Counted from the stretch's first letter, positions 2,041 through 63,900 are shown. The stretch: DNA of 64,000 nt from Thermoanaerobaculia bacterium (GCA_963666565.1 OY762911.1:928001-992000), one strand, 5' to 3'. The notes: generated from the letters alone by a model not told the origin. Translations and numbers: made by a program.

Positions 2041-2147
2041 CTGGGTGCGCGGGTCTTCCGACCCGCTGCCGCCGGAGGCGGCATGAGATGCGCGCCGGCC
2101 GTTTGCTGGGTGCGCGGGTCTTCCGACCCGCCGCCGCCGGAGGCGGC
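2041..2147 (+). repeat. Two tandem REP-like copies (2041-2082, 2106-2147)
   Basis: CTGGGTGC-GCGGGTC-TTCC-GACCCGC-(T/C)-GCCGCC-GGA-GGCGGC twice at 65-bp spacing. Confidence 0.95.
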
Positions 2148-2549
2148 ATGAGAAGCGTGCCGGCCGTCAAGCGGGTTCGGCTTGCCCTGCTCCTGTCCGC
2201 CGGCCTGGTCCTGGGCGCCGCCGCCTTCGACATGACGCGGCCGCCGGAGCGCCAACTCTCGGCGCGCGGCGCCGACGCCCTGATCGGCGCCTACCAGGCG
2301 ACGGTCTCGCCCCTCCTCACCCGCGCCGGCGTGCGCTGCCGCTTCCAGCCGACCTGCAGCGAGTACACGCGGACGACCGTCCGGGACCGCGGACTGGCGG
2401 CGGGCAGTCTGCGCGGTCTGGCCCGGCTGGCCCGGTGCGGACCGTGGACGCCGGCCGGCACCGTGGATCCTCCGGTACGGATCGCCGGTGGTCCGGCCCT
2501 GTGGCCGGCTTCCGGAAGAAACGTGGCCCCGAAGCGGCCACCGCATTGA
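2148..2549 (+). CDS. yidD: Membrane protein insertion efficiency factor YidD-like
   Basis: YQ..SP, CRFQPTCSEY, RLARCGPW..G.VDPP motifs. Confidence 0.85.
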   Translation: MRSVPAVKRVRLALLLSAGLVLGAAAFDMTRPPERQLSARGADALIGAYQATVSPLLTRAGVRCRFQPTCSEYTRTTVRDRGLAAGSLRGLARLARCGPWTPAGTVDPPVRIAGGPALWPASGRNVAPKRPPH

Positions 2550-2550
2550 C

Positions 2551-2886
2551 ATGACCGTCTGGCCCACCGAAGTCCGCCGGGACCACGAAGCGCGCCTGCT
2601 GCGGGTGCGCTGGCAGGACGGCCACGAGAGCGCATACGAGTACGACGTCCTGCGCGGCTACTGCCCCTGCGCCATGTGCCAGGGCCACAACGCGGGTCCG
2701 CTGCGGTTTCAGCCGCCGCCGCGGCCGGTAACGGCGCAGACCGTGTCCCAGGTCGGCAACTACGCGCTCAGCATCGCCTGGTCCGACGGTCACTGGACCG
2801 GCATCTACCGCTTCGACCTTCTGCGGCGCCTCTGCCCCTGCGACGAATGCCGGGTGCGCGGGTCTTCCGACCCGCTGCCGCCGTAG
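2551..2886 (+). CDS. DUF971 / GBBH-N-like metal-binding protein
   Basis: WQDGH, LRGYCPCAMC, VGNYAL..WSDGH.TGIY, CPCDEC; C-terminus and stop lie inside a REP copy. Confidence 0.85.
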   Translation: MTVWPTEVRRDHEARLLRVRWQDGHESAYEYDVLRGYCPCAMCQGHNAGPLRFQPPPRPVTAQTVSQVGNYALSIAWSDGHWTGIYRFDLLRRLCPCDECRVRGSSDPLPP

Positions 2887-2984
2887 GCGGCGGACGGTAG
2901 CGTCGCCGGCCTTTGGCCGGCGGCCCGATTGTCCGGGCTTCGCCGCTTCGCCCCCTGTGCGGGTCAGAAGACCCGCGCACCCAG
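2850..2984. repeat. REPIN-like composite (inverted REP pair with hairpin spacer)
   Basis: Forward copy 2850-2891, reverse copy 2959-2984; spacer CGTCGCCGGCCTTTGGCCGGCGGCC shared with 35000-35141. Confidence 0.9.
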
Positions 2985-3019
2985 CGGACGACCCACGCAG
3001 GCGGCGGATGAGCCGCGGG

Positions 3020-3709
3020 TCAGGCGCACTCTCGCTCGGCGAGCCGGCAGGCCCGCTCCCAGTCGGCGGCCGTGTTCACGTTCAGCAGGACCTCCTCGGG
3101 GTCTCCGAACCGGCTCGCATCGACCGGCTCGACGCGCAGGCCGGTACAGCGGGTGAGCGGGTAGAGGCGGTAGTCGCCCCGTTCGACTCGGGCCGCCAGC
3201 CGCTCCAGCGCCGGCGGCGTCCAGAGCGCGCAGGTCGGGTTCATGGATCGCGGGTCGCCGGGATCGGTCGTCGCCGCGGCCAGGTCGGCGCCGGATGCGG
3301 CGAGTTCGGCCAGCAGGTCGACCGGCGCCAGCGGCAGGTCGCAGGCCAGAACGAGCAGGCCGTGCCCCGGCCGGAACCGGGCCGCGCCCAGCACACCGGC
3401 CGCGGGGCCCGAACCTGGCCCGTCCGGCGCCGCCGAGACGGGGAGGCCGCGGTCGACCGGACCGGCTTCGGCGCCGAAGTCGCCGGCAGCGACGACGATC
3501 TCCTCGACCGCGGCAACGGCGGCAAGCCGGCCGACCGCCCGCTCGACCAGCGTCGGTCCCGGCGCACCGGATCGCGAACCGGGAAGGCGGAGGACCGCCT
3601 TGTTGCCCCCCAGCCGGTTCCCCCTGCCGCCCGCGAGCACGACGCCGGCGATCGGGCTGCTAGGCTGCGCCCGCTTCGCGCCCGCGGCATCCGGCCGGGG
3701 CGGTTTCAT
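3020..3709 (-). CDS. mobA: Molybdenum cofactor guanylyltransferase MobA-like
   Basis: [33 protein letters not shown] motifs. Confidence 0.85.
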
Positions 3710-7147: not shown

Positions 7148-7189
7148 CCGGGTGCGCGGGTCGTCTGACCCGCTGCCGCCGAAGGCGGC
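7148..7189 (+). repeat. REP-like copy
   Basis: GGGTGC-GCGGGTC-GTCT-GACCCGC-T-GCCGCC-GAA-GGCGGC. Confidence 0.9.
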
Positions 7190-7313: not shown

Positions 7314-8486
7314 ATGTCCGCGGCCAACGAAGCGGCCGGCCCGTTGGAGGGCTTCGTGCTCGGCATCGAAACGTCCTGCGACGACACCGCCTGCGCGGTG
7401 CTCGACGCGAAGGGCCGGGTGCTCTCGTCGGTCGTCTCGAGCCAACTGGACGTACACCGCCCGTTCGGCGGCGTCGTGCCGGAGGCGGCGTCGCGGGAGC
7501 ACCTACGCAACTGGCCCGCCGTGTCGGCGGCGGCGCTCGAGGAGGCGGGCGTGGACTGGTCCGGCGTCGGCGCGGTCGCGGCGACCCGCGGGCCCGGCCT
7601 CGTCGGGTCGCTCCTCGTCGGCCTTTCGCTCGGCAAGGCGATCGGCTACTCGCTCGGCGTGCCGTTCCTCGCCGTGCATCATCTGGAGGGGCACCTGTAC
7701 TCGCCGTTGCTCCGGTCCGACGGCGCGAGCCGGCCCGTGCCCGAGTCGATGGTCGGCCTGGTGGTCTCCGGCGGCCACACCAGCCTGCTCGCCGTCGACG
7801 GCCCGTCCGGCGCGGTGACCAGTCTGGCCGAGACGCGGGACGACGCGATCGGCGAAGCATTCGACAAGATCGGCCACCGCATCGGCCTGGCCTTCCCGGC
7901 CGGCGCCGAGGTCGACCGGCTGGCGGAACTCGGCGATCCGGCGGCCTGTCCGTTCCGGGTGGCCAGGATCAAGTCCAGCGAACTGGCCTTCTCGTACTCG
8001 GGCCTGAAGAGCCAGGCGCTGCGCGCGCTCGGCGAGATCGAGGCGGGGAACGGCGCCGGCTATGGCACCCCGGCGCACCCGGTGGGCGGCTCTGCGGACA
8101 CTTCGATCGAAGACGAAGCCTGGCCTCGGGAGGTGCTCGACCTGTTCGCCGGGTTCCGGCGCGCCGCGGTCGCGCAGTTGATCGACCGCCTGGACCGGCT
8201 GTGCGACGAGCGGCCGGTGGAGCGGCTCTCCGTCTCGGGCGGGGTGGCGGCGAACCGCCTGCTGCGTCGGGAGGTTGCGCTCTGGGGCGAGCGTCGCGGC
8301 GCCGAGGTGCTGCTCGTGCCGCTCCGCTACTGCGGCGACAACGCGGCGATGATCGCCCATGCCGGCCTGCTGCGCCTCCGTCGCGGCGACGTCGACGACC
8401 CCCGCTCCGCGGATGCGGAGAGCCGGATCCCCTTCGCGCCCCGGACTGCGAAGAAGCAGCTTGGGCAGCGAGTCGCGCCGGCCTGA
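7314..8486 (+). CDS. tsaD: tRNA N6-threonylcarbamoyltransferase TsaD
   Basis: LGIETSCDDT, GGVVPEAASREH, HHLEGH, SGGHT, DDAIGEAFDK, SGGVAAN, DNAAMIA. Confidence 0.95.
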   Translation: MSAANEAAGPLEGFVLGIETSCDDTACAVLDAKGRVLSSVVSSQLDVHRPFGGVVPEAASREHLRNWPAVSAAALEEAGVDWSGVGAVAATRGPGLVGSLLVGLSLGKAIGYSLGVPFLAVHHLEGHLYSPLLRSDGASRPVPESMVGLVVSGGHTSLLAVDGPSGAVTSLAETRDDAIGEAFDKIGHRIGLAFPAGAEVDRLAELGDPAACPFRVARIKSSELAFSYSGLKSQALRALGEIEAGNGAGYGTPAHPVGGSADTSIEDEAWPREVLDLFAGFRRAAVAQLIDRLDRLCDERPVERLSVSGGVAANRLLRREVALWGERRGAEVLLVPLRYCGDNAAMIAHAGLLRLRRGDVDDPRSADAESRIPFAPRTAKKQLGQRVAPA

Positions 8487-8505
8487 CGGCCGGCTCGCTT
8501 CTCTT

Positions 8506-8547
8506 GCCGCCTTCGGCGACGGCGGGTCGGAAGACCCGCGCACCCAG
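8506..8547 (-). repeat. REP-like copy between convergent tsaD and thiG
   Basis: Reverse complement of the consensus with a GAA loop. Confidence 0.9.
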
Positions 8548-8554
8548 CGGCCGC

Positions 8555-9334
8555 CTAGTCGATGAGCCCCCCCAGCGGCGACGATGCCGTCGCGTAGAGC
8601 TTCTTCGGAATCCGCCCGGCGTTCGCCGCCAGCCAGCCGGCCTCCACAGCCAGCTTCATCGCGCGCGCCATCCGCACCGGATCGCGGGCGCCGGCGACGC
8701 CGGTGTTCATCAGCACGCCGTCGGCGCCGAGCTCCATCGCCAGGGCGGCGTCGCTGGCGGTGCCGACGCCGGCGTCCACGATCACCGGCACGTTGGCCTG
8801 CTCGACGATGATCCGCAGGTTCGCCGGGTTGCGGATTCCCATCCCGGAGCCGATCGGCGCCGCGAGCGGCATCACCGCGGCCGCGCCCAGGTCCTCCAGC
8901 TTGCGGCAGGTGATCGGATCGTCCGTCGTGTAGGGAAGCACGACGAAGTCGTCGGCGACCAGCTCCCGGGTCGCCGCGAGCAGCTCTTCGTTGTCCGGGA
9001 AGAGCGTCTTCTCGTCGCCGATCACCTCCAGCTTGACCCAGTTCCATCCGCCCAGTTCCCGCGCCAGCCGGGCGGTCCGCACCGCGTCGTCCGCGGTGTA
9101 GCAGGCGGCGGTGTTGGGCAGCAGCAGGTAGCGGTCCTGGTCGATGCGGTCGATCAGCGACCCCTTGCCCAGGTCGTCCAGGTTGACGCGGCGGAGCGCC
9201 ACCGTGACCATCTCCGTGCCGGACGCGGCGAAGGCCTCGACCATCACCTGTTCGTCGCGGTACTTGCCGGTGCCGAGAATGAGGCGCGAGCGGAACTCGC
9301 GTCCGGCGATGACGAGCGGTTCTGGAGCGGTCAT
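8555..9334 (-). CDS. thiG: Thiazole synthase
   Basis: [45 protein letters not shown]. Confidence 0.96.
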
Positions 9335-11399: not shown

Positions 11400-12056
11400 C
11401 TACGGCCTCAGCCGTTCGATCGTCCTGGTTCCCAGGCGCTGAATCGCCGCGACGACGTCGACGTTGCCCGGGTCGAGCAGCCACAGGAGCGTCGCTCCGC
11501 GGACGGCGGCGAGAACCTGGAAAGCGGTTTCGGCCGGATCGACGTCGGCCCGGATCTCGCCTGCATCCCGTCCCTCCCGAACGGCCTGTTCGATCGCCGC
11601 CGCGAAGCGGTCGTTGCCGGCTCTGAACAGATCGATCTTCGCGTTCAGCGGCCCGAGCGAATCCGCCATCAGCATGAACAGCGCTCGCATCCAGTGTTCG
11701 GCGTCGCGGAGCAGTTCCGAGTAGCCGGTGAAGATGCGGTTCAGGCCGGCCAGGCCGGCGACTCCGTTTTCCGGCTCGAAGACCTCGTCGCCGGCGCGGG
11801 TCTGCAGACGGGCGACGATCGCCTCGACGATTCCCTCCTTCGAGCCGAAGCGGAGCGAAACGAGAGCGCTCGAGTAGCCGGCCTCCCTGCCGATCTGCTC
11901 GAGGGTCGTCGCGGTGTAGCCCTGGCGGCCGAACAGGATCGCGGCGGCCTGCAGGATCTGGCGCTCCGACTCGGCGCGCCGTTCCGCCTGGGTGCGCCGC
12001 GGGCGCCCGCCGCCGCGCTGCCGGGCGTCCGGGTTCGCGTTGACGGGCTCTGACAT
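11400..12056 (-). CDS. TetR/AcrR family regulator
   Basis: ILQAAAILF..GY.ATTLEQI..EAG....FGSKE helix-turn-helix; GEIRADVDP. Confidence 0.9.
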   Translation of the reverse strand: MSEPVNANPDARQRGGGRPRRTQAERRAESERQILQAAAILFGRQGYTATTLEQIGREAGYSSALVSLRFGSKEGIVEAIVARLQTRAGDEVFEPENGVAGLAGLNRIFTGYSELLRDAEHWMRALFMLMADSLGPLNAKIDLFRAGNDRFAAAIEQAVREGRDAGEIRADVDPAETAFQVLAAVRGATLLWLLDPGNVDVVAAIQRLGTRTIERLRP

Positions 12057-12196: not shown

Positions 12197-12231
12197 ACTC
12201 TATCCCCAGGCGCCTGCCGGGCGAGCGGGCC

Positions 12232-12254
12232 GGTGCGCGGGTCTTCCGACCCGC
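12232..12254 (+). repeat. REP-like copy (first hairpin only)
   Basis: GGTGC-GCGGGTC-TTCC-GACCCGC. Confidence 0.85.
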
Positions 12255-12355
12255 TCCGGGCGACGGCGCGGAGCGACGGCGACCGAAGGGGAAGCCGCCG
12301 GCCGGCGGGCGGCGCCATTCCCGGCTCTGCAAGCTCTTCGGCTACGCTGACGAGC

Positions 12356-13456: not shown

Positions 13457-14697
13457 CGCCGGAACGGATCCGCCGCGAGGTCTCGGCCTGGCTCGACGCG
13501 AACTGGCGCGTCGACCGTCCCCTGATCGAGTGGCGGAACATTCTGCTCGAAGGCGGCTGGGCCGCCCCGCACTGGCCCGAGGAGTGGTACGGACGCGGCT
13601 TCACGCTCGACCAGACCATCGTCGTCGCGGAGGTCTTCCGGGAGAAGGACGTGGTTCGGGCCGCTCAGGTCGGTCCGCGGGGACTGGCGTCGGAGACGAT
13701 CCTGGCCTGTGGCTCGGACGACCAGAAGCGGCGCTTCCTGCGGCCCATCCTGACCGGAGAGCACACCTGGTGCCAGCTCTTCAGCGAGCCGGGCAGCGGT
13801 TCCGATCTGGCGGGCCTGAGCACCCGGGCCGAGTTGAAGGACGGCAAGTGGATCGTCAACGGCCAGAAAGTCTGGAACACGAGCGCCCACCACGCGGACT
13901 TCGGGTTGCTCGTCGCGCGCACCGACTGGGACGTGCCGAAGCACCAGGGGATCAGCTACTTCCTGCTCGACATGCGGCAGCCGGGAGTCGAGGCGCGGCC
14001 GCTCCGGCAGATGAACGGCCACCAGTCGTTCAACGAGGTCTTCATGACGAACGCCGTCGTGCCGCCGGAGGACCTGATCGGCGGCGAGGGCAACGGCTGG
14101 CACGTGGCGAAGACCACGCTCTCCTTCGAACGGCGCGGCTTCAGCCGCCGGGTGCGCGGTTCCTCCCTGGACGGGCCGAAGCAGGGGCCGATCTACGCGG
14201 AGTACGAGGAAGAGCTCCGGATCGCGACGGAGCCCTACACCTGGTACCCGCAGCGCGAGGGCCGGGTGGACCTCGTCCTGCCGCGCGCCCGGGAAACCGG
14301 TGCGATCGACGAGCCGGCGACGCGGCAGGAGATCGCGAAGCTGATTTGCCTGCATACCGGCGCGCGGCTCGCCTCCGACGGCGCCGAGGCCAGGCGCAAG
14401 GCCGGCACCACGGAGATCATCCCGGCCGGGTCGATCGGCAAGCTCGCCGCGAGCGTCATAGCCCGCCAGGCCTCCGTGGTCCACACGATGATCTCCGGCG
14501 CGGACGCCATGCTGAGCGGTCCCGACTCCGCCGCGGACGGGATCATCGCGGAGGTCCTGGTCTCGGTGCCCGCCATCTCGATCGCTGGCGGCACAGACGA
14601 GATCCAGCGCAACATCATCTCCGAGCGCGTGCTGGGGATGCCGAAGGGGTACCGCGCCGACCAGGGCCCGTTCCGCGACATCAAGCGCAACGCGTAG
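13453..14697 (+). CDS. Acyl-CoA dehydrogenase family protein
   Basis: WCQLFSEPGSGSDLA, NGQKVW, FNEVF, IAGGTDEIQRNII; ATGA-coupled to the upstream ACAD. Confidence 0.92.
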   Translation: MTPERIRREVSAWLDANWRVDRPLIEWRNILLEGGWAAPHWPEEWYGRGFTLDQTIVVAEVFREKDVVRAAQVGPRGLASETILACGSDDQKRRFLRPILTGEHTWCQLFSEPGSGSDLAGLSTRAELKDGKWIVNGQKVWNTSAHHADFGLLVARTDWDVPKHQGISYFLLDMRQPGVEARPLRQMNGHQSFNEVFMTNAVVPPEDLIGGEGNGWHVAKTTLSFERRGFSRRVRGSSLDGPKQGPIYAEYEEELRIATEPYTWYPQREGRVDLVLPRARETGAIDEPATRQEIAKLICLHTGARLASDGAEARRKAGTTEIIPAGSIGKLAASVIARQASVVHTMISGADAMLSGPDSAADGIIAEVLVSVPAISIAGGTDEIQRNIISERVLGMPKGYRADQGPFRDIKRNA

Positions 14698-16692: not shown

Positions 16693-16718
16693 CTGGGTGC
16701 GCGGGTCTTCTGACCCGC
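16693..16718 (+). repeat. REP-like copy at the left edge of the defence island
   Basis: CTGGGTGC-GCGGGTC-TTCT-GACCCGC, followed by GCCGC-GGA-GCGGC. Confidence 0.88.
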
Positions 16719-16754
16719 CCCCCGGGTGGCGCCGCGGAGCGGCGGAGACCGGAG

Positions 16755-24290: not shown

Positions 24291-24403
24291 TGTTCGATCT
24301 CCTTGTGAGGATTGAGGGAGTGTCGCAAGGGCGCCCCGACCCAAGGGAAGGCGGGCATTCTGCCCGCGCCCGGTGCGAAGCGACAGTCGGCTTCGGGCGG
24401 CGC

Positions 24404-32607: not shown

Positions 32608-32649
32608 GCCGTCTTCGGCGGCAGCGGGTCGGAAGACCCGCGCACCCAG
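32608..32649 (-). repeat. REP-like copy
   Basis: Reverse complement of the consensus with a GAA loop. Confidence 0.9.
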
Positions 32650-34999: not shown

Positions 35000-35141
35000 C
35001 TGGGTGTGCGGGTCTTCCGACCCGCTGCCGCCGGAGGCGGCCGACGAAATCGTCGCCGGCCTTTGGCCGGCGGCCTGTTTCTCCGGGCTGCACCGCTTCG
35101 CGGTTTCGCCCGTGGGCGGGTCGGAAGACCCGCGCACCCAG
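35000..35141. repeat. REPIN-like composite (inverted REP pair)
   Basis: Forward 35000-35041, reverse 35116-35141; spacer homologous to 2892-2958; preceded by 10-bp CTGGGTGYGG tandems. Confidence 0.9.
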
Positions 35142-36322: not shown

Positions 36323-36412
36323 GAGGCTCGCGGTCGGCCGGCGCCTTCGGCGCCGGAGCCGGGTGGTCGCCGCCCGTTGGCCGGCGGCTGCTTTCGTGGG
36401 GCTCCGCCCCAG

Positions 36413-36527
36413 GCGGGTCGGAAGACCCGCGCACCCGGCGCAGATCGCGGGCTGTCCCACACTGGGTGCGCGGGTCTTCCGACCCGCTGCCGCCGGAGGC
36501 GGCCAGAAAGACGCGCCGCGAAGCGGC
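36413..36527. repeat. REP-like cluster (reverse 36413-36436, forward 36462-36503, GCCGC-GAA-GCGGC tail)
   Basis: Consensus matches on both strands, between convergent genes. Confidence 0.9.
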
Positions 36528-37614: not shown

Positions 37615-37666
37615 GGGGCTTTCTCCCTCCAGCGAATGCAGTGAGCCGCCGACGATACCCTCTGTC

Positions 37667-37730
37667 GGTGCGCGGGTCTTCCGACGCGCTGCCGCCGAAG
37701 GCGGCGAACTGAACGCGCCGCGAAGCGGCG
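37667..37730 (+). repeat. REP-like copy with GAA tail hairpin
   Basis: GGTGC-GCGGGTC-TTCC-GACGCGC-T-GCCGCC-GAA-GGCGGC ... GCCGC-GAA-GCGGC. Confidence 0.85.
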
Positions 37731-38446: not shown

Positions 38447-38466
38447 ACGATGGAGGTTCCGGATCG

Positions 38467-39282: not shown

Positions 39283-39379
39283 CCGGCGCCGGCGTCTCGG
39301 GCCTGCCTCCGCTATCGTCGCCGGCCATGGGCCGGCGGCCCGTTGTTCGGGCTGTGCCGCTCCGCGGCGCCGCCCGTGG

Positions 39380-39405
39380 GCGGGTCGGAAGACCCGCGCA
39401 CCCAG
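39380..39405 (-). repeat. REP-like copy (half of a REPIN-like composite)
   Basis: GCGGGTCGGAAGACCCGCGCACCCAG preceded by the shared spacer. Confidence 0.88.
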
Positions 39406-39442
39406 CGCGCCCGGTGGCTGTTCCATGCAAGAGAGGATCAAG

Positions 39443-39983: not shown

Positions 39984-40018
39984 CTCCCCCGCCTCCCTTC
40001 GATGGTGGCAGGGGTGTC

Positions 40019-40083
40019 GGTGCGCGGGTCTTCTGACCCGCTGCCGCCGTAGGGCGGCCAGAGGGACGCGCCGCGAAGCGGCG
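40019..40083 (+). repeat. REP-like copy with GAA tail
   Basis: GGTGC-GCGGGTC-TTCT-GACCCGC-T-GCCGCC-GTAG-GGCGGC. Confidence 0.85.
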
Positions 40084-40176
40084 ACGACAGCCGGTGGACC
40101 GCCGGGTTTGGCGACGGCGTAGGATAAGCAGGCTCGTTGGCTGGCCGTAACACAGGACTTCAGACACGGGGCGACC

Positions 40177-42028: not shown

Positions 42029-42113
42029 CCCGGCGGCCTACCCAGCGGGGTCCTCGGAGGGATCTGGGTGGGCACGCTGTTACCCAAAGGGCGTCCGGCG
42101 TAGTCGGTGACCC

Positions 42114-46007: not shown

Positions 46008-46246
46008 GACGGTGCGACCTCGATGGTGGCGGGATAGGGGCGACGCACGCCTCAACCCTAGCGCCAGCAGACTGACGGAGGCGCCCCTTGCATCGCTGGT
46101 GCGCGGCTTTACGCCCTTGCACATGCTGCCCTTCCAGTTACGGACCGTGAAGACGTTCCGTAGAATGCGGCTCATGTGGGCGACGGACGGCCCACAGGTG
46201 GTCTCGTCTTGCTGTGGGACCGTCTACGTCGAGGAAGGAAGGGACG

Positions 46247-46588
46247 ATGGGTGTCGACGCTGTCTGGACCCTGAAACTGGCGGTCAGGACCCACGAGGAG
46301 AACGGCGTTTGGGTTGCGGACTGCCCCGCGCTCGACATCGCCAGCCAAGGGAACGACCCGGAAGACGCGGTCAAGATGCTCAGAGAGGCGGTCGAGCTGG
46401 TGATGGAGCGCTGCCTGGAGAAGAACACGTGGATCGCCTTCCTCGAAGAACGGGGAGTGACGCCGACCCGCCACTCGATGACCTCTTTCACGCAGCCGAA
46501 GTTCGACGACGAGGCGGACTACGTCGAGTTCCCGATCTGGATCATCAGCGATGCCGGGGCGTCGACGACTGCATCCGGTCGCTCCTGA
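46247..46588 (+). CDS. hicB: HicB-like antitoxin
   Basis: WVADCPALDIASQG..EDA...REA. Confidence 0.8.
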   Translation: MGVDAVWTLKLAVRTHEENGVWVADCPALDIASQGNDPEDAVKMLREAVELVMERCLEKNTWIAFLEERGVTPTRHSMTSFTQPKFDDEADYVEFPIWIISDAGASTTASGRS

Positions 46589-46784
46589 CCGAGCGATCAG
46601 AGCGTTCGAGAGGGCCGGCGGCACGCTGGTTCGGCAGAAAGGCGGACACGCAATCATCGATGCCGATGGTTGGCCTCGGCCCGTCGTGATCCCGATGCAC
46701 CGTCGGGACGTTTCGCCTGGGACGCTTCGCGGCAACATCAGGACCGCGGGCCTCTCCGTGGAGGAGTTCCTCGACCTCCTCTAG
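46551..46784 (+). CDS. hicA: HicA-like toxin
   Basis: RQKGGH, VVIPMH..DV.PGTL..IRTAGLSVEEFL.LL. Confidence 0.82.
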   Translation: MPGRRRLHPVAPDRAIRAFERAGGTLVRQKGGHAIIDADGWPRPVVIPMHRRDVSPGTLRGNIRTAGLSVEEFLDLL

Positions 46785-46811
46785 CGAAGCGTCGCGTTGA
46801 CCAACCGCGGC

Positions 46812-47210
46812 ATGTCTGGCACAGTGACCGAGGTGAGCAAACCGCTCAAGCGTGTCGTCGCGGTGGTCGTCCTGCTGGGATGCCAGACGCCGGGTACGTT
46901 CGCGCTCGCGGCCGGGTTGGACTTGGCGGCTCACTTCCTTCCGTTCGGGCACGAGCACGACCTCGCTGACCTGACGAGGTCGGCGACGCATGGGCATCAC
47001 CACGACGGCGAGGCGGTGCCCGACCATGACCACCTCGCCATGGTGGATGGCGAGACGGACCTGACGCGGCCCGGCCCGTCGGCGGTCGCGGTGCTGGCGG
47101 CGCCCTCTTCGGCGTCGGTGACGCTCGCCGAGGGAACGCCCTTTGAGGCGGCGTCCAGACGCGGACCGCCGCCGCTTCTGTTCCAGACTCACTGCGCGCT
47201 GTTGCTCTGA
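46812..47210 (+). CDS. His-rich CzcI/DUF2946-like protein (start uncertain)
   Basis: HEHD, HGHHHD, HDH and C-terminal RGPP..H.ALLL; upstream of czcCBA. Confidence 0.6.
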   Translation: MSGTVTEVSKPLKRVVAVVVLLGCQTPGTFALAAGLDLAAHFLPFGHEHDLADLTRSATHGHHHDGEAVPDHDHLAMVDGETDLTRPGPSAVAVLAAPSSASVTLAEGTPFEAASRRGPPPLLFQTHCALLL

Positions 47211-47270
47211 TCCGCGGCCCCGGCCGGGTGCGATTCGTACCCGGAACCTGGACGCGGAAAGGAGTCAGCC

Positions 47271-48656
47271 ATGCATCGCTTCATCCCGATCGGCCTTCTG
47301 GCCGGTCTTCTCGGCGCCGCCGGGGCGGCCCAGGACGGGCCGGCCGCCACCGGGGCCGAGTTCCTCTCGATCCTCGACGAGTTGCGCACCGCCGTTCGCG
47401 ACAGCTCTGCCGCCGGGGCGGCCCAGGACGGGCCGGTCGTCACCGAGGCGGAGTTCCTCTCGGTCCTCGACGCGGCGCACCCGGCCGTGCGGGAGAGATC
47501 TACTGCCGGCGCGGCTCAGGACGGGCCCGTCGTCACCGAGGCCGAGTTCCTTTCGGTGCTCGACGAGGCGCATCCCGCCGTTCGCGAGAGGGCCGCGGCT
47601 GTGACGCGGGCCGAAGCCGGCCTGCTGGCGTCGCGGACGTTGAACAATCCGGTCGTCGAGGCGGTCCGCGAGGACCCGAACGGGCCGCTCGGGCAGACGG
47701 ACTTGCTCGTCTCCTGGCAGATTCCGGGTGCCGCGCGCCGTCCCGAGATCGAGGCCCGCGAAGGCGAGATCGGGGCCGCCCGTCGCCGGCTGGCGCACGA
47801 CCTGCTGGGCCATCGCCTGGCGATGAGGGAGGCCTATGCGGGTTGGGCGGTGGCCGACGCGCGGCGGCAACGACTGACGCTGCAGGCTGAGCGGGTCGGA
47901 TCGCTTGCGCAACGTGAGGCCGTTCGCGCGGCGAGGGGGGAGGCGTCCGGACTCGAAGCCCGCCGGCTGGGCTTGGCCGCGGCCACGCTCCGATCCCGCG
48001 TCGCTCTGGCCGCCGGGGCGAGCGAACGGGCGAAGGCAAAGGCGGCGGCCTGGCATCCTCGTTTACCGCCCGACGCGCGGCCGGTTCTGCCCGAACTGCC
48101 GGACGCGCCGTCGCTGGAGGGGACCGATGCTCGGGTGCGCGCCGCCGAAGCGGATCTGGCCGCCGCCGAACTGACCGAACTCGCGACTCGGCCGATCGTC
48201 GCGTCGCCCGAGGTCACGCTGGGCTGGCAGGAGCAGGACGTCGGGCTCGGCTCGGTGGATGGACCGATCGTCGGCCTCGCGTGGTCGGTGCCGCTGTTCG
48301 ATCGGCGGCAGGCGGCTCGGCAGCGAGCGGACGCGGGGCTGGCGGCCGCGCGGGCAAGGCTGGAACTGGCGAAACGCGAGTCCACGGCCGCGCGGATGGC
48401 TGCGCGGGGGAACTTCGCGCGGCTTGCGTCCGCCTTGGCCGAAGCCCGGCAGGAACTTGGCGCCACGGGACGGATGCTGGACGGCGCCGAGGCGGCGTTT
48501 CGGCAGGGGGAGGCGGGCTTGACGGATCTGCTCGAGACGCTTCGCTCGGTGACGGAGGTTGAGTTGGCGGTGCTCGATCTGCATGAGGCGGCGCTGTCGG
48601 CGCACCGCGAGCTGGAACGGCTGGCGGCTGCTGGGGGAGGAGGGCCGGGGTCATGA
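47271..48656 (+). CDS. TolC/CzcC-like outer membrane efflux protein
   Basis: AAGGAG RBS, signal peptide, SVPLFDR, F.QGE.GL.DLL; three 31-aa N-terminal repeats. Confidence 0.85.
   Translation: MHRFIPIGLLAGLLGAAGAAQDGPAATGAEFLSILDELRTAVRDSSAAGAAQDGPVVTEAEFLSVLDAAHPAVRERSTAGAAQDGPVVTEAEFLSVLDEAHPAVRERAAAVTRAEAGLLASRTLNNPVVEAVREDPNGPLGQTDLLVSWQIPGAARRPEIEAREGEIGAARRRLAHDLLGHRLAMREAYAGWAVADARRQRLTLQAERVGSLAQREAVRAARGEASGLEARRLGLAAATLRSRVALAAGASERAKAKAAAWHPRLPPDARPVLPELPDAPSLEGTDARVRAAEADLAAAELTELATRPIVASPEVTLGWQEQDVGLGSVDGPIVGLAWSVPLFDRRQAARQRADAGLAAARARLELAKRESTAARMAARGNFARLASALAEARQELGATGRMLDGAEAAFRQGEAGLTDLLETLRSVTEVELAVLDLHEAALSAHRELERLAAAGGGGPGS
47319..47597 (+). repeat. 3 x 93-bp in-frame tandem repeat in czcC
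   Basis: AGAAQDGP..T.AEFLS.LD....AVR units at 47319, 47412 and 47505. Confidence 0.9.
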
Positions 48657-50569
48657 GGTGGGGTGGTTCCGTAGAAGGTTGGCGGATCCTGGCGGTCGCC
48701 GCTTCGCGGCGCGGTGTTTCCCGGAAGCGGACCGGAAGGTCCGCGCACCCAGAGCACGCGCTTGCCCGGTGGGGGAGTCTCTACCGCAAGCCCATTGCTC
48801 GCAGTGACGCCATGACGTTTGCAGAACGGAAGTGGGTCTCGCCGGAGTGGTTCTCTGGGTGCGCGGACCTTCTGGTCCGCTGCCGCCGAAGGCGGCCAGA
48901 AGCACGCGCCGGCCGAAGGCCGGCACCGCTTCGACGCGGCGGTTCCCTGCAAGGCCGGCGCACCCCATGTCTGGCGACTCTCGTGGGCGGGGCCGCAGTC
49001 AAGCCGCTGAACCTGGCGCTGGCGGCGTTGCTTCTCGCGGCGTGCGTCGGCTCGCCGGCGGCCGAGCGGCACGACCAAGACGACGATCACTCGGATGGAA
49101 GCTGGTCGGTCACGGCCATCGGCGAACGGTTCGAGGTCTTCCCCGAGATCGACGCTCTGGCGGAAGGCCGTGCGGCGACGGCCCACGTTCACGTGACCCG
49201 GCTCGCGGACTTCGCGCCCCTGGCGGAAGGGACGGTGGAGATCGTCCTGGTCGATGGCGAAGGCGAACAGGTCTTCCGCGCCGACGGCCCGACCGAACCC
49301 GGCCACTTTCTCATCGAACTGACTCCGCGGCGTGCCGGCGAGGCGGACCTGCTTTTCCGGATCGCCGACGGCGGCGTGGCCGGCAGCGAGGAGATCCCCG
49401 GCGGCCGGGTCGGCGTCGGCACGGCCGACCGCGGGGAAGGCCTCGTGCGGGCGCCATCGCTCCCCGCCGGGTCCGACGGCGGCGAGCCCGTCTCGTTCGG
49501 GAAGGAGCAGCAGTGGCAGGGCGGCTTCGCGACCGTCTGGGTGCGGGAAGGCCGCCTGGCCCGGAGCGTCGCCGGCGTCGCCTCCTTCCGCCCGCCGGCG
49601 GGCGGCGAGAGCGCGATCACCGCGCAGGTCGACGGCGTCGTCCAGCCGCCCGCGGGCGCCCGTTCCTGGCCGTTCGTCGGGCGGCGCGTGGAACGGAACG
49701 CCGCCCTGTTCCGGGTCGTCCCGCTGGTCGCGGCCGAGCGCAGCCTGGCGACCCTCGAAGGAGAACTCGAAGCCCTGACCACGGAACTGGAGAGCGCCCA
49801 CTCGCGCAGCTCGCGTCTCGGCGAGCTCCTGGCCCTCGAAGCGGTCAGCGAGCGTGAGGTCGAGGAGGCTGGCGTCCGCGCCCGGATGCTCGAAGCGCGC
49901 CACCGGGCGGCGGAACGGGACCTCGAGTCGGCCCGCGCCTCGCGCGAAGGCGGGGCCGACAGCGCGGGCATCTCGCTGCGCGCCCCGTTCTCGGGCCGGG
50001 TCGCGGCCGTTACCACGACGCCCGGCGCCACCGTCGCCGCCGGCGACTCTCTCGCCCGGCTGGTGCGGACCGACGTCGTCTGGATCGAGGTCGCGCTGCC
50101 GCCGCAGGACGCGCGGCGGCTGATGGACGCGGGCCTGCGCGGCCTCGTTCTCGACGACCCGGAGAGCGGCCCGGTGCGCGTCGAAGGCGACCTCTCCCTC
50201 GTCTCCGTCTCGCCCGAACTCTCGCCGCGCACCGGCACGGTCACGGTGCTGCTGGAGGCGCCCGGCATCGCCGGCACGGGCTTCGCGCTCGGCTCCACCG
50301 TCGCGGCGCAGGTGCTGATGGCCGGCGAGGACGCGGGCATCGTGGTGCCCGCCTCGGCCGTGGTCGACGACGGCGGCGTGCCGGTCGTGTTCCTGCAACT
50401 CGCCGGCGAGGACTTCCAGCGGCAGACGGTGACCGTGCTCGGCCGGCAGGGAGACCGGGTGCTCGTTGGCGGGCTCGCGCCGGGCCAGCGCCTGGTGACC
50501 CGCGGCGGCGACGCCATCCGTCGTTCGTCCCTCATGGCGAGCGGCGACGCCCACGGCCATGTCCACTGA
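48653..50569 (+). CDS. CzcB-like RND periplasmic adaptor (true start uncertain)
   Basis: Lipobox LAAC, LRAPFSG, VPASAVVDDGG, C-terminal HGHVH. Confidence 0.82.
   Translation: MRWGGSVEGWRILAVAASRRGVSRKRTGRSAHPEHALARWGSLYRKPIARSDAMTFAERKWVSPEWFSGCADLLVRCRRRRPEARAGRRPAPLRRGGSLQGRRTPCLATLVGGAAVKPLNLALAALLLAACVGSPAAERHDQDDDHSDGSWSVTAIGERFEVFPEIDALAEGRAATAHVHVTRLADFAPLAEGTVEIVLVDGEGEQVFRADGPTEPGHFLIELTPRRAGEADLLFRIADGGVAGSEEIPGGRVGVGTADRGEGLVRAPSLPAGSDGGEPVSFGKEQQWQGGFATVWVREGRLARSVAGVASFRPPAGGESAITAQVDGVVQPPAGARSWPFVGRRVERNAALFRVVPLVAAERSLATLEGELEALTTELESAHSRSSRLGELLALEAVSEREVEEAGVRARMLEARHRAAERDLESARASREGGADSAGISLRAPFSGRVAAVTTTPGATVAAGDSLARLVRTDVVWIEVALPPQDARRLMDAGLRGLVLDDPESGPVRVEGDLSLVSVSPELSPRTGTVTVLLEAPGIAGTGFALGSTVAAQVLMAGEDAGIVVPASAVVDDGGVPVVFLQLAGEDFQRQTVTVLGRQGDRVLVGGLAPGQRLVTRGGDAIRRSSLMASGDAHGHVH
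48727..48896. repeat. REP-like pair, stem variant GCGGACC/GGTCCGC
   Basis: Reverse 48727-48752 and forward 48855-48896, both with the compensated stem. Confidence 0.88.
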
Positions 50570-55522: not shown

Positions 55523-55600
55523 CTGGGTGCGCGGGTCTTCCGACCCGCTTGCCGCCGAAGGCGGCCAGGAGAATCGTCGCCGGCCTTTGGCCGGCGGCCC
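55523..55600 (+). repeat. REP-like copy with REPIN spacer hairpin
   Basis: Consensus with GAA loop, then CGTCGCCGGCCTTTGGCCGGCGGCC. Confidence 0.9.
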
Positions 55601-60243: not shown

Positions 60244-60269
60244 CTGGGTGCGCCGGCGCCCCCGCCGGC
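60244..60269 (+). repeat. REP-like copy, stem variant GCCGGCG/CGCCGGC
   Basis: CTGGGTGC-GCCGGCG-CCCC-CGCCGGC. Confidence 0.8.
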
Positions 60270-60298
60270 TTCTGGACTTCCGCCGCGCTAGATCAGCC

Positions 60299-61133: not shown

Positions 61134-61174
61134 CCGCCTCCGGCGGCAGCGGGTCGGAAGACCCGCGCACCCAG
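61134..61174 (-). repeat. REP-like copy
   Basis: Reverse complement of the consensus with a GGA loop. Confidence 0.9.
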
Positions 61175-61287
61175 CGCACGACCCGGCTCCCTGCGCTGCC
61201 CCCGCTCGCATGTCGGCCGGTCCGAGGCGAAGCCTCGCTAGACTCGCAGTTCCTTCGCGTCGACCGCCTGCAGTGAGGAGAAGAGCC

Positions 61288-62436
61288 ATGCATGGACTTC
61301 GTTGGCGCCCGCTTGCGGCGCTCCTGGTCGCCCTGATGAGCGCGGCCGCTAGCTTCGGCCAGGCGACGGAGTCGGCGGAGCCGTTCAAGGTCGGGACCTT
61401 CGACATCGACGGCGTGCCGCGCGTCGGCCTCGTCCTGCGGGACAGCCTGGTGGTCGACATCGCGGAGGCGAACCGGGGGCTGGAGGCAGATCCGGCGTAC
61501 CCGAAGATGCCGATGCCGGAGGACATGCTCGAGCTCATCGGCCGCTACGAGTACGGCCTCAAGTACCGGCTGTACGAGATCGTGAACCATCTCGTCGGTA
61601 ACGAGCTCCTCGGCAGCGACGCGCCGCGGTACGTCCACCCCGTCGACGAGCTCCGAATCCGGCCGCCGATCATGTATCCGGGCAAGATCCTGAACGCCGC
61701 CGTCAACTTCTACAGTCACGTCAACGAGTCGGGAACCGAGGAAGAGCGGGCCGCTGCCCGGCGCCAGCGCCGGGAGAACCGCGGCGTCCCGTACCTCTTC
61801 CTCAAGCCGTCGCGGGGCGCGGTCGTCGGCAGCGGCGACAAGATCGTCATCCCGCACGGGCGCGACCGCACGGACTGGGAAGTCGAGCTGGGCGCGGTCA
61901 TCGGGCGGACGGCGAGGTACGTCTCCGCCGCCGACGCCCAGGACCACGTCTTCGGCTACATGGTCTCCATCGACGTCTCCGACCGCGGCGGGCGGCCGCC
62001 GGGAGGCAACCCCATCCGCAGCGACTGGTTCGTCGGCAAGGGGCACGACACCTTCGCGCCGCAGGGCCCGTGGATCGTGCCGCGCGAGTTCTACGGCGAT
62101 CCGATGGAGAACCTCCGCCAGACCCTGAGTGTCGACGGCACCCTGCTCCAGGAGGCGCGCGCCGGCGACATGATCCACTCGCTGTGGGAGCTGATCGAGT
62201 ACGGGTCGTCGATCATCACGCTCTATCCCGGCGACGTGATCAACAACGGCACCTCGGGCGGCACGGCGGCCGGCGCCGCCGCGATCCGCGGGCCGGAAGA
62301 TCGCTTCCTCAAGCCGGGCGAGGTGGTCGAGGCGTCGATCGACGGCATCGGCACGCTGCGGCTGCCGGTGGTGGCCGGGGAGAAGCCGCCGGGCGAGACG
62401 GGGGCGCGGCTGCCGCCGGTCAAGTCGTATCGCTGA
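61288..62436 (+). CDS. Fumarylacetoacetate hydrolase family protein with signal peptide
   Basis: NFYSH, DWEVELG, DVSDR, GK.HDTFAP.GPW, PGDVI..GT; GAGGAG RBS. Confidence 0.88.
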   Translation: MHGLRWRPLAALLVALMSAAASFGQATESAEPFKVGTFDIDGVPRVGLVLRDSLVVDIAEANRGLEADPAYPKMPMPEDMLELIGRYEYGLKYRLYEIVNHLVGNELLGSDAPRYVHPVDELRIRPPIMYPGKILNAAVNFYSHVNESGTEEERAAARRQRRENRGVPYLFLKPSRGAVVGSGDKIVIPHGRDRTDWEVELGAVIGRTARYVSAADAQDHVFGYMVSIDVSDRGGRPPGGNPIRSDWFVGKGHDTFAPQGPWIVPREFYGDPMENLRQTLSVDGTLLQEARAGDMIHSLWELIEYGSSIITLYPGDVINNGTSGGTAAGAAAIRGPEDRFLKPGEVVEASIDGIGTLRLPVVAGEKPPGETGARLPPVKSYR

Positions 62437-62592
62437 CTGCGCCCGTCCGCATGGAGGGCCCGCCGCGTCGCCGCAACGGGCGCGCGCCAGGCGCCCGCGC
62501 CCCGCACCCGTCGAGAGCGCGACGAGATTTAGTGTCGCTTGTGTGTCTCCGGTGTGTCGTCAGAGAGGCGGCGCTAGGCTAGAATCGTCTGC

Positions 62593-63834
62593 ATGACTGC
62601 ATCGTCTCCGCCGAGGAATTCGGCTCAGCGTCTGATGATCGGCTCACTCAACGCGATCCGCCTCGCGGCCACCACGACAGGCATCCTCCTTGTGACGCCG
62701 GCCATGGCTGCGGGCCTCAACCTCGACCGCCCCACCTTCGTCGACGACGTGGCGCCGATCCTTCACGCCAACTGTGTCTCCTGCCACCGGCCCGGCGAGA
62801 TCGGGCCGATGTCGCTGCGCACCTACGGCGAGGTTCGGCCGTGGGCCCGGTCCATCGCCCGCGCGGTCGAGAACCGGGACATGCCGCCGTGGGACGCCGA
62901 CCCGGGCTACGGGCCGTGGTTGAACGACATCAGCCTGAACGACGACGAGATCGCGGCGATCGTCCACTGGGCGACGAACGGCGCGCCCCGCGGCGAGGGC
63001 GACGAACCGGTCCATGAGCAGCCGGAGGCCGCGCGGGATTGGGCGTTCGGCGAACCGGACTGGGTGTTCGAGTTCGATCCCCACGAGGTGGCGGTGGAGG
63101 GACCGGACGAGTTTCGCGACGTGACGATCACGACCGGATTCGACGAGGATCGCTGGATCCGCGCGGTCGAGGTTCAGCCGGGAGACGGCAAGGTGCTTCA
63201 TCACTTCATTCTCTGGCGAGGCGGCGCCAGCGGGCCCTACCCGGAAAGCTGGATGGCGGTCTGGACCGCGGGCAGCGAGCCCCGCCAGTTCCCGGCGGGG
63301 TCCGCCCGCCTGCTGCAGAAGGGCCGCGCGATGATCGGCGATTTCCACTACCACCCGAGGGACGAAGCGGCAACCGACAGCACCCGCATCGGTCTCTGGT
63401 TCGCCGAACCCGAGGAAGTCGAAAAGGAACTGATCACGCTGCCGATCTGGAACGCCGGCATCGAGATCCCGGCGGGCGACCCGAACTACGAAGCGGAGAC
63501 GAGCCGCGTCTTCCAGGAAGACGTCCTGGTGCACGGGTTCACGCCGCACATGCACTACCGCGGAAAGTCCATGTTCTTCAGCGCGGAGCTTCCCGACGGC
63601 AGCACCAGGGATCTGCTCGGGGTCAGCCGCTACGACTTCGACTGGCAGACGACCTACCTGTTGTCCGAGCCGATCCGGCTGCCGGCCGGGACGCGAATCC
63701 ATGTGAAGGCCACCTTCGACAACTCGGCCGACAACCCCGAGAACCCCGACCCGACGGTCGACGTCAAGTGGGGTCTGGAATCCACCGACGAGATGCTGAA
63801 CGGCCTCGTCGACTACGTCGCGGCGGACAGATAG
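62593..63834 (+). CDS. Cytochrome c-like domain plus copper type II monooxygenase-like domain
   Basis: CVSCH heme motif; VLHH, HYHP, PHMH.RG, YDFDWQ, DEM. Confidence 0.8.
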   Translation: MTASSPPRNSAQRLMIGSLNAIRLAATTTGILLVTPAMAAGLNLDRPTFVDDVAPILHANCVSCHRPGEIGPMSLRTYGEVRPWARSIARAVENRDMPPWDADPGYGPWLNDISLNDDEIAAIVHWATNGAPRGEGDEPVHEQPEAARDWAFGEPDWVFEFDPHEVAVEGPDEFRDVTITTGFDEDRWIRAVEVQPGDGKVLHHFILWRGGASGPYPESWMAVWTAGSEPRQFPAGSARLLQKGRAMIGDFHYHPRDEAATDSTRIGLWFAEPEEVEKELITLPIWNAGIEIPAGDPNYEAETSRVFQEDVLVHGFTPHMHYRGKSMFFSAELPDGSTRDLLGVSRYDFDWQTTYLLSEPIRLPAGTRIHVKATFDNSADNPENPDPTVDVKWGLESTDEMLNGLVDYVAADR

Positions 63835-63855
63835 CGCTGGCCTGCGCGGCGGAAA

Positions 63856-63900
63856 CCGGGTGCGCCGGCGTCCCCGCCGGCATCCGGCGCGAAGCGCCGG
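63856..63900 (+). repeat. REP-like copy (variant stem) plus GAA hairpin
   Basis: GGGTGC-GCCGGCG-TCCC-CGCCGGC, then CCGGCGC-GAA-GCGCCGG. Confidence 0.8.

Follow-up and report, generated by a model that had tools for sequence, protein, structure and literature searches.

A 64,000-nt stretch of the genome of a Thermoanaerobaculia bacterium (hereafter the window; G000:C1:928001-992000, G000 being the genome under study) carries about two dozen short hairpins that share a GGGTGC foot and differ in the sequence of their stems, which raises the question of what these repeats are, what moves them and what the different stems stand for. G000 is a single contig of 4,786,144 bp with 70.2% GC; its relatives' genomes are numbered from G001 onward, and the main comparison set comprised 25 genomes of the genus, G000 included. 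The repeats are best explained as repetitive extragenic palindromic (REP) elements, many of them arranged as doublets (REPINs), which are non-autonomous and are copied or moved by a single-copy Y1 HUH enzyme, a REP-associated tyrosine transposase (RAYT), or TnpA(REP). We put the probability of this reading at roughly 0.88.

The 13-mer GGGTGCGCGGGTC occurred 19 times in the window with at most one mismatch, whereas 100 dinucleotide shuffles of the window contained it 0.72 times on average and three times at most, so that none reached 19. With filters off, a covariance-model scan of the entire window returned 50 matches at E ≤ 1. The model had been trained on 84 copies, window copies among them, and its matches to them are therefore obtained by construction; the informative part of the scan is the clean score gap after the 23rd match, the top 23 scoring 35.2–43.9 bits and the next best only 22.7 bits. 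By this gap and the shuffles, 23 of the 24 copies listed in a preliminary description of the window belonged to one family, as claimed there, and the listed starts lay within 0–14 nt of the model's matches (for the minus-strand copies given as 8506, 32608 and 61134, 13–14 nt below the 28-nt core). The remaining copy, at 24345, proved to be a real hairpin but not of the same family, having a different foot. The stem tally in that description, 18 GCGGGTC, 3 GCCGGCG, 2 GCGGACC and 1 GCGGGCA, was exact. At Rfam gathering thresholds only two tRNAs were found in the window, and no RNA family fell on the repeats.

The genome-wide copy count was based on pattern scans for foot plus hairpin and not on the covariance model, whose whole-genome run scored the best 150 of 15,304 candidates and gave at least 171 matches. 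Perfect 7-bp hairpins with a loop of 3–7 nt followed GGTG[CT] 887 times in G000, vs. 15–131 times for five control feet. A perfect 7/4/7 hairpin stood after 754 of the 4094 GGGTGC sites and one with 6/7 pairs after another 74, while the reversed foot GCACCC (likewise n = 4094) was followed by no perfect hairpin and by nine with 6/7 pairs. The resulting catalogue held 954 copies in 4.79 Mb (approximately 0.2 per kb). Stem GCGGGTC accounted for 751 perfect copies and 59 with 6/7 pairs; the minority stems, in the same order, were GCCGGCG (74 + 19), GCCGGCC (16 + 8), GCGGACC (12 + 1) and GCGGGCC (7 + 2), with five copies of other types. Placement was predominantly extragenic: 135 of the 954 copy centres fell within called genes and 819 outside, compared to approximately 825 expected within genes at random, and among the 135 there were 32 within 90 nt of a stop and 26 within 90 nt of a start. 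Genes were called with a codon log-odds caller (3520 genes covering 86.4% of G000); an alternative caller using a GC3 threshold and the first start was rejected, as it over-extended 5' ends, covered 73% and placed 343 of the 954 copies inside genes.

The core of a REP began with an 8-nt foot, (C[TC])GGGTGC; a stem of 7 bp followed, whose two arms enclosed a 4-nt pyrimidine loop. The foot ended in GTGC, rarely in GTAC, at the stem and so differed from the canonical GT[AG]G; at 26 nt for foot plus hairpin, the unit is a short palindrome in high copy. The commonest feet in the catalogue were CTGGGTGC (568), CCGGGTGC (239) and GTCGGTGC (74). Loops were TTCC, TTCT or CTCT with stem GCGGGTC and TCCC, TCCT or CCCT with GCCGGCG, and because loop sequence thus co-varied with the stem, the subfamilies are to be regarded as separate lineages. 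Folded as single-stranded DNA, the cores had predicted energies of −8.5 to −10.2 kcal/mol. Stem covariation was assessed with an alignment of 84 copies, 59 of them distinct, taken from the window and the RAYT flanks of the genus. Five of the seven pairs varied on both sides (62 cells) and none on one side only, in line with the earlier claim that pairing is kept while the stem changes; the covariation score was reached in none of 500 shuffles, and sliding the partners left 19–44% of cells paired. The rows had been preselected for at least 6/7 pairs, which makes the 98.8% of paired cells circular but not the lack of one-sided intermediates.

The element extended beyond the hairpin that was seen first, since second and third hairpin modules followed many copies. 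The second hairpin, GCCGCCG-N-AGGCGGC, occurred 336 times in G000, 313 of these no more than 90 nt 3' of a REP, and the palindrome CGCCGGCC-NNN-GGCCGGCG occurred 202 times, 172 of them at this distance. Two REPs with their feet outward around this palindrome formed a REPIN of approximately 140 nt. Pairs with the feet outside numbered 120, of which 66 were spaced 105–109 nt centre to centre, and pairs with the feet inside 19; the doublet at 2846–2988 folded as DNA at −59.9 kcal/mol (z −7.06). In addition to 401 singletons, G000 contained 78 direct tandem arrays of 2–7 units, and the 17 arrays with at least four units each had their own near-constant period of 25–40 nt. With such periods and no spacers, clustered regularly interspaced short palindromic repeats (CRISPR) were ruled out.

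Two profiles and tblastn with 24 RAYTs identified a single Y1 HUH gene in G000, at approximately 749.1–749.9 kb of C1 and 179 kb upstream of the window, which agreed with the preliminary statement that the window itself holds no RAYT; the gene was present in single copy, with no near-identical duplicates in G000. Its open reading frame (ORF; L001:1057-1932) encodes the HUH motif MPNHIHAL and the tyrosine motif RRYIQHNP, with the YxxxNP signature present. It scored 34.4 bits against Pfam Y1_Tnp (cut-off 23) and 21.9 bits against the NCBIfam IS200 model (cut-off 55), and the best solved structure was E. coli TnpA(REP) (4ER8, E = 2.2e-5). The 3' end of the gene ran into four tandem 27-nt REPs, two with a GGTAC foot, followed by an inverted REP, and the foot variant GGGTAC was also found beside it. 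The 100-kb bin around the gene (G000:C1:700000-800000) held 106 copies vs. a mean of approximately 20, arrays of 5–7 units included. In G022, clustering around the RAYT locus of that genome was likewise seen among the matches listed. Tandem repeats of the foot without a hairpin (CTGGGTGC/CACTGGGYGCC) lay on both sides of the RAYT (L001:1066-1112 and 2000-2040) and, in the window, at 34978–35007, preceding the REP at 35000; such repeats may have been left behind as the foot was cleaved and rejoined over and over.

In the alignment with 4ER8, of the residues of TnpA(REP) that contact GTAG (W94, Q95, E100, H101 and R104, according to the available parts of PMC6006769), W94 and R104 were kept, while Q95 was replaced by M, E100 by D and H101 by R; WM was common to all RAYTs of the genus whose motifs were compared. 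It is our conjecture that these changes are related to the foot having G instead of A and C instead of G. The motif set NHIH / WM / YIQHNP exactly fitted no row of Table 1 in PMC6006769, the nearest rows being subclasses 2.4, 2.6 and 2.7, all with WQ. The closest named relative of the RAYT (63% identity) came from a metagenome-assembled genome (MAG) labelled Candidatus Multivorans sp. (Acidobacteriota, Thermoanaerobaculia at NCBI). RAYTs with 45–56% identity were present in MAGs labelled Verrucomicrobiota, Gammaproteobacteria (Contendobacter, Lysobacterales, Accumulibacter) and Alphaproteobacteria, so this RAYT type is spread across phyla.

Comparison with related species showed that individual sites hold the repeats in some species and lack them in others. 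The first 9 kb of the window were syntenic across the genus at approximately 74–86% identity, with alignments breaking at REPs. Orthologous segments of four window sites were compared in 12 relatives, and filled and empty sites were found at all four. At the REPIN site (2850–3030), seven relatives had a conserved 48-nt segment and two had 5–8 nt in its place (empty in 9 of the 11 with both flanks), two had a single REP, in opposite orientations, and one lacked a flank. The REP at 7148 corresponded to a conserved empty site of 57–62 nt in 12/12 relatives, and that at 8520 to a 20-nt empty site in 6 of the 11 with both flanks; the other five had a different hairpin repeat there, and one relative lacked the flanks. 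The tandem pair at 2041 and 2106 was common to three relatives; four lacked flanks, and the other five with both flanks included one GCCGGCG REP, two empty sites of 27–30 nt and one degenerate relic. The different repeat at the orthologues of 8435–8577 (L062 in G003, L064 in G019, L069 in G020, L070 in G008 and L071 in G014) had a foot ..CTAGTG[AT]C followed by CCGGGTC-ttct-GACCCGG and could represent a further REP class within the genus; in G000 its stem alone occurred twice, foot plus stem never.

The site at 48725, compared in 22 relatives, is an insertion hot spot with nested elements of four stem types. Two relatives (G001 and G022) had a GCGGACC REP with a similar right flank, and in the same orientation GCCGGCC was found in seven, GCCGGCG in four and GCGGGTC in one. 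No REP was detected in the remaining eight; two of these were clean empty sites of 77–78 nt, and in two more, inspection by eye revealed a degenerate REP and a hairpin of the GGGAAC type. That the 48725 copy is an old shared insertion would fit its sharing by G001 and G022, but with three other stems in 12 species single-copy orthology is unsafe, and this interpretation was not retained. No target-site duplication was found at 77 doublets, for which offsets of 0–6 nt and lengths of 2–5 nt were searched and counts were similar to those of a shuffled-partner control. Four public sequencing runs with this DNA were available as contigs only; these contigs stopped at REP copies, where depth piled up, and their joints, which lay between repeats and had short sides of 21–31 letters, were uninformative on current excision or insertion. 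REPs also contributed to coding sequence: the ORF at 2551–2886 ended in CPCDECRVRGSSDPLPP and a stop, its last approximately 11 codons and the stop being derived from the REP at 2850 and module 2. This ORF is small and Cys-rich (...CPCAMCQGH...CPCDEC...), and in relatives with the empty site it ended otherwise.

Across the genus, a RAYT was present in 15 of the 24 other species genomes. The 13-mer was counted 775 times in G000 and 1–176 times in the other genomes of the genus, vs. 0–2 times per genome in 16 representatives of other genera of the order. All 19 RAYT loci examined in the genus (19/19) were flanked by REPs with a constant kind of foot and lineage-specific stems. The flanking stem was GCGGGTC in G000, G003, G004 and G008 and at one RAYT each of G001 and G017 (G001a, G017a); GCCGGCG in G009 and G016 and at the other RAYT of these two (G001b, G017b); GCCGGCC in G013, G014, G019 and G020, with foot GTCGGTGC, and in G007, with foot CTGGGTGC; GCGGACC in G011 and G022; GCGGGCC at G015a; and GCGGGCA, with foot CTGGGAAC, at G015b. 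All three genomes with two RAYTs (G001, G015 and G017) thus had a different stem at each. More distant acidobacterial RAYTs kept GGTGC next to still other stems and loops. In a maximum-likelihood tree built from 23 RAYTs after removal of a truncated row, clades followed the flanking stem, with supports of 100/98 for GCGGGTC, 93/86 for GCCGGCG, 100/98 for GCGGACC and 100/99 for GTCGGTGC-GCCGGCC, and stem type changed five times within the genus, the minimum possible for six types. The second RAYT of G015 (L054, G015:C1 at approximately 2.226 Mb) had a long branch and 13 flanking REPs, including arrays with periods of 27 and 33 nt.

G000 keeps only the RAYT of the GCGGGTC lineage, which matches approximately 810 of its 954 copies; in the counts by 13-mer or hairpin pattern, its own type reached 775 vs. 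69, 16 and 12 for the other types. The minority stems GCCGGCG, GCCGGCC, GCGGACC and GCGGGCC, together with the GCGGGCA relic, most likely represent orphans in decay whose RAYT lineages persist in sister species, although both their orphan status and the loss of the corresponding RAYTs are judged probable from comparison between genomes only. The largest populations of GCCGGCG (G017 232, G016 229, G009 202), of GCCGGCC (G007 133, G014 114, G020 114, G019 105) and of GCGGACC (G022, 80) all occurred in genomes with the cognate RAYT. Complete genomes without a RAYT (G002, G010 and G021) held 4, 1 and 1 copies, respectively, and the median was 33 copies for RAYT-less genomes vs. approximately 231 for those with a RAYT (hand sums). 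These genus-wide figures cover four stem types, leaving out GCGGGCC and the GCGGGCA/GGGAAC types, and as the main type was counted by the 13-mer and the other three by 23-nt hairpin patterns, they are not strictly comparable. In G000, copies with 6/7 pairs were more frequent among minority stems (30/139) than with the main stem (59/810; Fisher p = 1.8e-6).

Several findings weigh against the interpretation of the repeats as RAYT-moved REPs or against the orphan origin of their minority stems. The interpretation rests on sequence analysis, and enzyme activity is a prediction. With 76.3–77.9 bits against NCBIfam REP_Tyr_transpos the RAYT stays just below the equivalog cut-off of 80, which was exceeded in 18 of 41 related genomes, and repeats encoded by REPs are fused to the C-terminal end of the protein. 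That RAYT clades agree with their flanking stems could be due to co-inheritance of physically linked DNA, and chance hairpins, where a stem consists of G and C only, may have enlarged the excess of minority copies with 6/7 pairs. Among the 13 genomes with a single RAYT of a counted type, only 7 had more copies of the cognate stem than of any other of the four: G019 and G020, with a GCCGGCC RAYT, contained 176 and 163 GCGGGTC 13-mers, G008, with a GCGGGTC RAYT, had 34 copies of its own type vs. 91 of GCCGGCC, and G003 had a non-cognate population of 108. G005, an assembly in 40 contigs, had 314 copies and no RAYT was found in it. Finally, neither tblastn with 24 RAYTs nor a full-sensitivity profile at two sister-RAYT sites revealed a remnant of a lost RAYT in G000 (best E 0.17). 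The orthologous sites of the sister GCCGGCC RAYT (the next intergenic region, 751.6–753.0 kb) and of the sister GGGAAC/GCGGGCA RAYT (1465.9–1468.0 kb) were occupied in G000 by main-type REPs and other ORFs. At both loci (L072, G000:C1:751500-753100; L073, G000:C1:1465800-1468100) ORFs lay between inverted main-type REPs with the feet outside, as in a REPtron; one was of 397 aa and one, possibly WYL-like, of 108 aa.

Genome-wide counts therefore fit a strict one-RAYT-one-stem specificity only in part, and the strongest alternative stays within the same REP-RAYT system and supposes that the stem is not read at all: a single RAYT would move every GGTGC-footed 7-bp hairpin, the minority stems would be live, and the match of clade and stem would be linkage. 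The large non-cognate populations of G003, G008, G019 and G020, the modest share of genomes in which the cognate stem predominates and the lack of a RAYT remnant in G000 would all follow from this, as would the 48725 site, where the stem type matched the type of the genome's RAYT in only 6 of 12 cases. Against it stand the fact that three stem types are most numerous in genomes that carry the cognate RAYT, the predominance of its own type in G000, the separate lineages indicated by the loops, the more frequent mispairing of minority copies and the separate stem of each RAYT in 3/3 two-RAYT genomes. On balance we regard this alternative as rather unlikely. The preliminary proposal that the subfamilies are read by different RAYTs was accordingly supported at the genus level, by flanks and tree, while genome-wide abundances agreed with it partly and G000 has one RAYT.

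If the stem is read, a speculative scheme, which we put forward tentatively, is that the foot serves as a fixed handle and the 7-bp stem as a changeable address read by the RAYT in at least six lineages. Populations would grow with their RAYT and decay after its loss, so that orphans become layered in a genome, as the four or five populations of G000 would be, and new stems might arise when a foot comes to adjoin another hairpin and not by paired point mutations. The GCCGGCC stem is the same as the central palindrome of the REPIN, and at the 48725 site some species had only the palindrome beside the foot, others palindrome, second hairpin, REP stem and foot.

A second alternative regards the repeats as structures selected by the host, such as stabilisers of mRNA 3' ends, terminators or protein-binding sites, which were spread by recombination, with the RAYT as a bystander. 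It could account for the conserved pairing, for the enrichment in convergent intergenic regions (154 of 485 occupied vs. 283 of 1960 co-directional; 89 of 525 divergent) and for the coincidence of foot strand and gene strand in 115 of 175 singletons in co-directional regions. Terminator calling on window positions 30001–50000, however, found 0 of 11 REP foot-hairpins terminator-like, the two calls made there falling on the central or third module; the REP hairpin is followed by the consensus t.cCGgcg without a T-run, and so lacks the succession of hairpin and T-run of an intrinsic terminator. A range of 1–775 copies among species of one genus and the filled and empty sites are also unlike conserved regulatory sites, REPs were present at every RAYT examined, and RAYT-less genomes had the fewest copies. 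This explanation is thus improbable as the origin of the family, although a secondary use of REPs by the host besides their mobilisation by the RAYT is possible. Singleton orientation was biased relative to replication direction (236/401, p = 4.6e-4); a lagging-strand mechanism was set aside, as this bias is confounded with gene orientation (115 vs. 60 in co-directional regions). The GC-skew minimum of G000 lay at approximately 880 kb, possibly the origin. That the doublets are miniature inverted-repeat transposable elements moved by a DDE transposase that acts in trans on terminal inverted repeats formed by the inverted REPs would suit their ~140-bp length and inverted ends but is highly improbable given the missing target-site duplications, the 401 singletons, the direct tandem arrays and the fact that the only gene flanked by the elements is the Y1 HUH gene.

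By analogy with E. coli TnpA(REP) and IS200/IS605, the RAYT would act on single-stranded DNA in which the 7-bp hairpin is folded and the 5' foot GGGTGC is left unpaired, recognising both. Its tyrosine (in YIQHNP), together with the metal site of the HUH motif (NHIH), would cut beside the foot. The cut strand would be rejoined elsewhere, often next to an existing REP and without target duplication. Cleavage, strand transfer and the foot-reading residues are all predicted from this analogy; the foot would act as the conserved address, and the stem differs among the RAYT lineages of the genus. The primary papers behind the TnpA(REP) mechanism are those of Ton-Hoang and of Messing, both from 2012.

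The copies in the window are collected in Table 1. The relic at 24343–24367 resembled the REPs with foot CTGGGAAC and stem GCGGGCA around the second RAYT of G015, and GGGAACGCGGGCA occurred four times in G000. Both this copy and a hairpin of G023 at the 48.7-kb site looked like relics of the G015b-type family. The foot with half a stem at 14148–14165 is either a relic or due to chance.

Table 1. REP copies and related features of the window, with positions counted from its first letter.
Position	Strand	Feature	Score or basis
2041..2068	+	REP, stem GCGGGTC; first of direct pair 65 nt apart; followed by GCCGCC-GGAG-GCGGC module	43.9 bits
2106..2133	+	REP, stem GCGGGTC; second of direct pair	42.9 bits
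2850..2984		REPIN doublet, feet outside, central palindrome GCCGGCC-ttt-GGCCGGC; REP 2850-2877 (+), REP 2957-2984 (-)	
7148..7175	+	REP, stem GCGGGTC, loop gtct	covariance model
8520..8547	-	REP, stem GCGGGTC	covariance model
11988..12015	+	Doubtful or degenerate copy; full foot CTGGGTGC, stem GCCGCGG/CCGCCGC (6/7)	22.7 bits, E 0.0018
12229..12256	+	REP, stem GCGGGTC, foot GCCGGTGC	38.1 bits
14148..14165	+	Foot and half stem only (CCGGGTGCGCGGTTC), no hairpin	
16693..16720	+	REP, stem GCGGGTC	covariance model
24343..24367	+	Relic of related family; foot AAGGGAAG, stem GCGGGCA, loop ttc, return TGCCCGC	
32622..32649	-	REP, stem GCGGGTC	covariance model
35000..35141		REPIN doublet; REP 35000-35027 (+, foot CTGGGTGT, two foot-only repeats before), REP 35114-35141 (-)	
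36411..36438	-	REP, stem GCGGGTC; foot toward foot of 36462 copy	covariance model
36462..36489	+	REP, stem GCGGGTC	covariance model
37664..37691	+	REP, stem GCGGGTC with one mismatch (6/7), foot GTCGGTGC	35.2 bits
38380..38407	+	REP, minority stem GCCGGCG, loop tccc	covariance model
39378..39405	-	REP, stem GCGGGTC	covariance model
40016..40043	+	REP, stem GCGGGTC, foot GTCGGTGC	covariance model
48725..48752	-	REP, minority stem GCGGACC	covariance model
48855..48882	+	REP, minority stem GCGGACC; foot toward foot of 48725 copy	covariance model
55523..55550	+	REP, stem GCGGGTC, modules 2 and 3 (three hairpins in series)	covariance model
60244..60271	+	REP, minority stem GCCGGCG, loop cccc	covariance model
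61147..61174	-	REP, stem GCGGGTC	covariance model
63856..63883	+	REP, minority stem GCCGGCG, loop tccc	covariance model

Among known systems, the E. coli REPs, organised in bacterial interspersed mosaic elements and served by TnpA(REP) (RayT/YafM; the "REPtron"; 4ER8), share with the present one a Y1 HUH enzyme with HUH and tyrosine motifs that is encoded by a single gene among its own REPs, the pairing of REPs in inverted orientation and a hairpin preceded by a conserved 5' foot that stays unpaired. According to the available parts of PMC6006769, several REP subfamilies per gene (Y, Z1 and Z2) occur there too. The E. coli foot is GTAG rather than GGGTGC, the stem is long and bulged instead of a perfect 7 bp, and the proteins matched at only 27 bits, the N-terminal part being longer here. 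The REPIN-RAYT system of Pseudomonas (Bertels and Rainey, 2011; Group 3 or subclass 2.5; accounts in PMC5581495 and PMC6006769, as far as available) likewise has the REP doublet as its mobile unit and single-copy, vertically inherited RAYTs, several per genome and each with its own REP family, with populations that vary among close relatives. It differs in phylum (Acidobacteriota here), in foot and in the motifs DH[LF]H / WQ / YI[VI]ANP given for subclass 2.5 in Table 1 of PMC6006769, compared to NHIH / WM / YIQHNP. The length of the REPIN (approximately 140 nt), its central palindrome and second hairpin module, and the frequent direct tandem arrays with periods of 25–40 nt also set the present system apart. 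IS200/IS605 TnpA belongs to the same enzyme superfamily and reads a hairpin and a guide sequence on single-stranded DNA; here, in contrast, there is one copy of the gene, which is not mobile together with its ends and has YxxxNP (class 2) rather than YxxxQ (PMC6006769, available parts).

The nearest precedent for the foot is Table S1 of Quentin et al. (2018; PMC6006769), which, in its available part, lists GGGTGC, GGGTAC, GGTGC and GTGC feet beside tnpA(REP) genes under codes that we read as Acidobacteria (AcapA01, AbacA01, GmalA01, AcisA01) and, for PbraA01, as a planctomycete. The acidobacterial hairpins have the same foot in the same phylum, and the PbraA01 row combines a GTGC foot with a 7-bp stem and a 3-nt loop. 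Stems, however, measure 9–22 nt in AcapA01, AbacA01 and GmalA01 and 7–12 in AcisA01 vs. 7 bp here, and the entries are REPtron flanks, not described in that part of the table as a dispersed family of about a thousand copies. The proteins are filed there as marginal subclass 2.2 or as 2.1, and tnpA(REP)-type genes of this phylum were called "TIRYT" in the available text of Di Nocera et al. (2013). The GTAG and CGTC superfamilies (Di Nocera, De Gregorio and Rocco, 2013; same text) resemble our family in consisting of many copies of a short tagged stem-loop, most of them downstream of genes and some within, but its tag is neither of theirs and, unlike CGTC REPs, it has a dedicated transposase. 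In the available part of Bertels et al. (2017; PMC5581495), abundant flanking 16-mers are tied only to RAYT Groups 2 and 3. A literature search returned no paper on REPs in Thermoanaerobaculia or the Candidatus Multivorans lineage.

The suggestion of a possibly undescribed class was consequently overstated, as GGGTGC-type feet beside acidobacterial tnpA(REP) were already on record and the architecture is that of classical REPs, REPINs and REPtrons. The other main points of the preliminary description stood up. The REP-like elements are tied to a Y1 HUH gene, and the genome-wide count, gene search and site comparison that it had proposed yielded, respectively, some 954 copies in 4.79 Mb, one RAYT with REPs of the same type at its flanks, and polymorphism at 4/4 window sites. 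Covariation, an HUH nuclease and presence/absence polymorphism, which it had made the touchstones of its proposal, were all present, and the match to an already described family was partial, through the foot.

The kind of system is thus already known, and what is added is a genus-wide picture of a constant foot, lineage-specific stems and orphan populations. REP-RAYT systems have been studied mostly in Proteobacteria, and the present one is large (approximately 950 copies), belongs to an uncultured acidobacterial lineage and has a foot other than GTAG. Within a single genus it comprises six or more RAYT lineages, each with a fully compensated stem of its own beside the constant foot. For annotation, it matters that REPs break assemblies, provide genes with stop codons and C-termini and also lie within genes. 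With genomes that have zero, one or two RAYTs and from one to approximately 870 copies, the genus offers a comparative set for what a RAYT reads, be it foot, shape or stem, and for the fate of REPs after its loss. If the stem is indeed a changeable address, these species would constitute a natural series for how a Y1 HUH enzyme shifts its DNA specificity.

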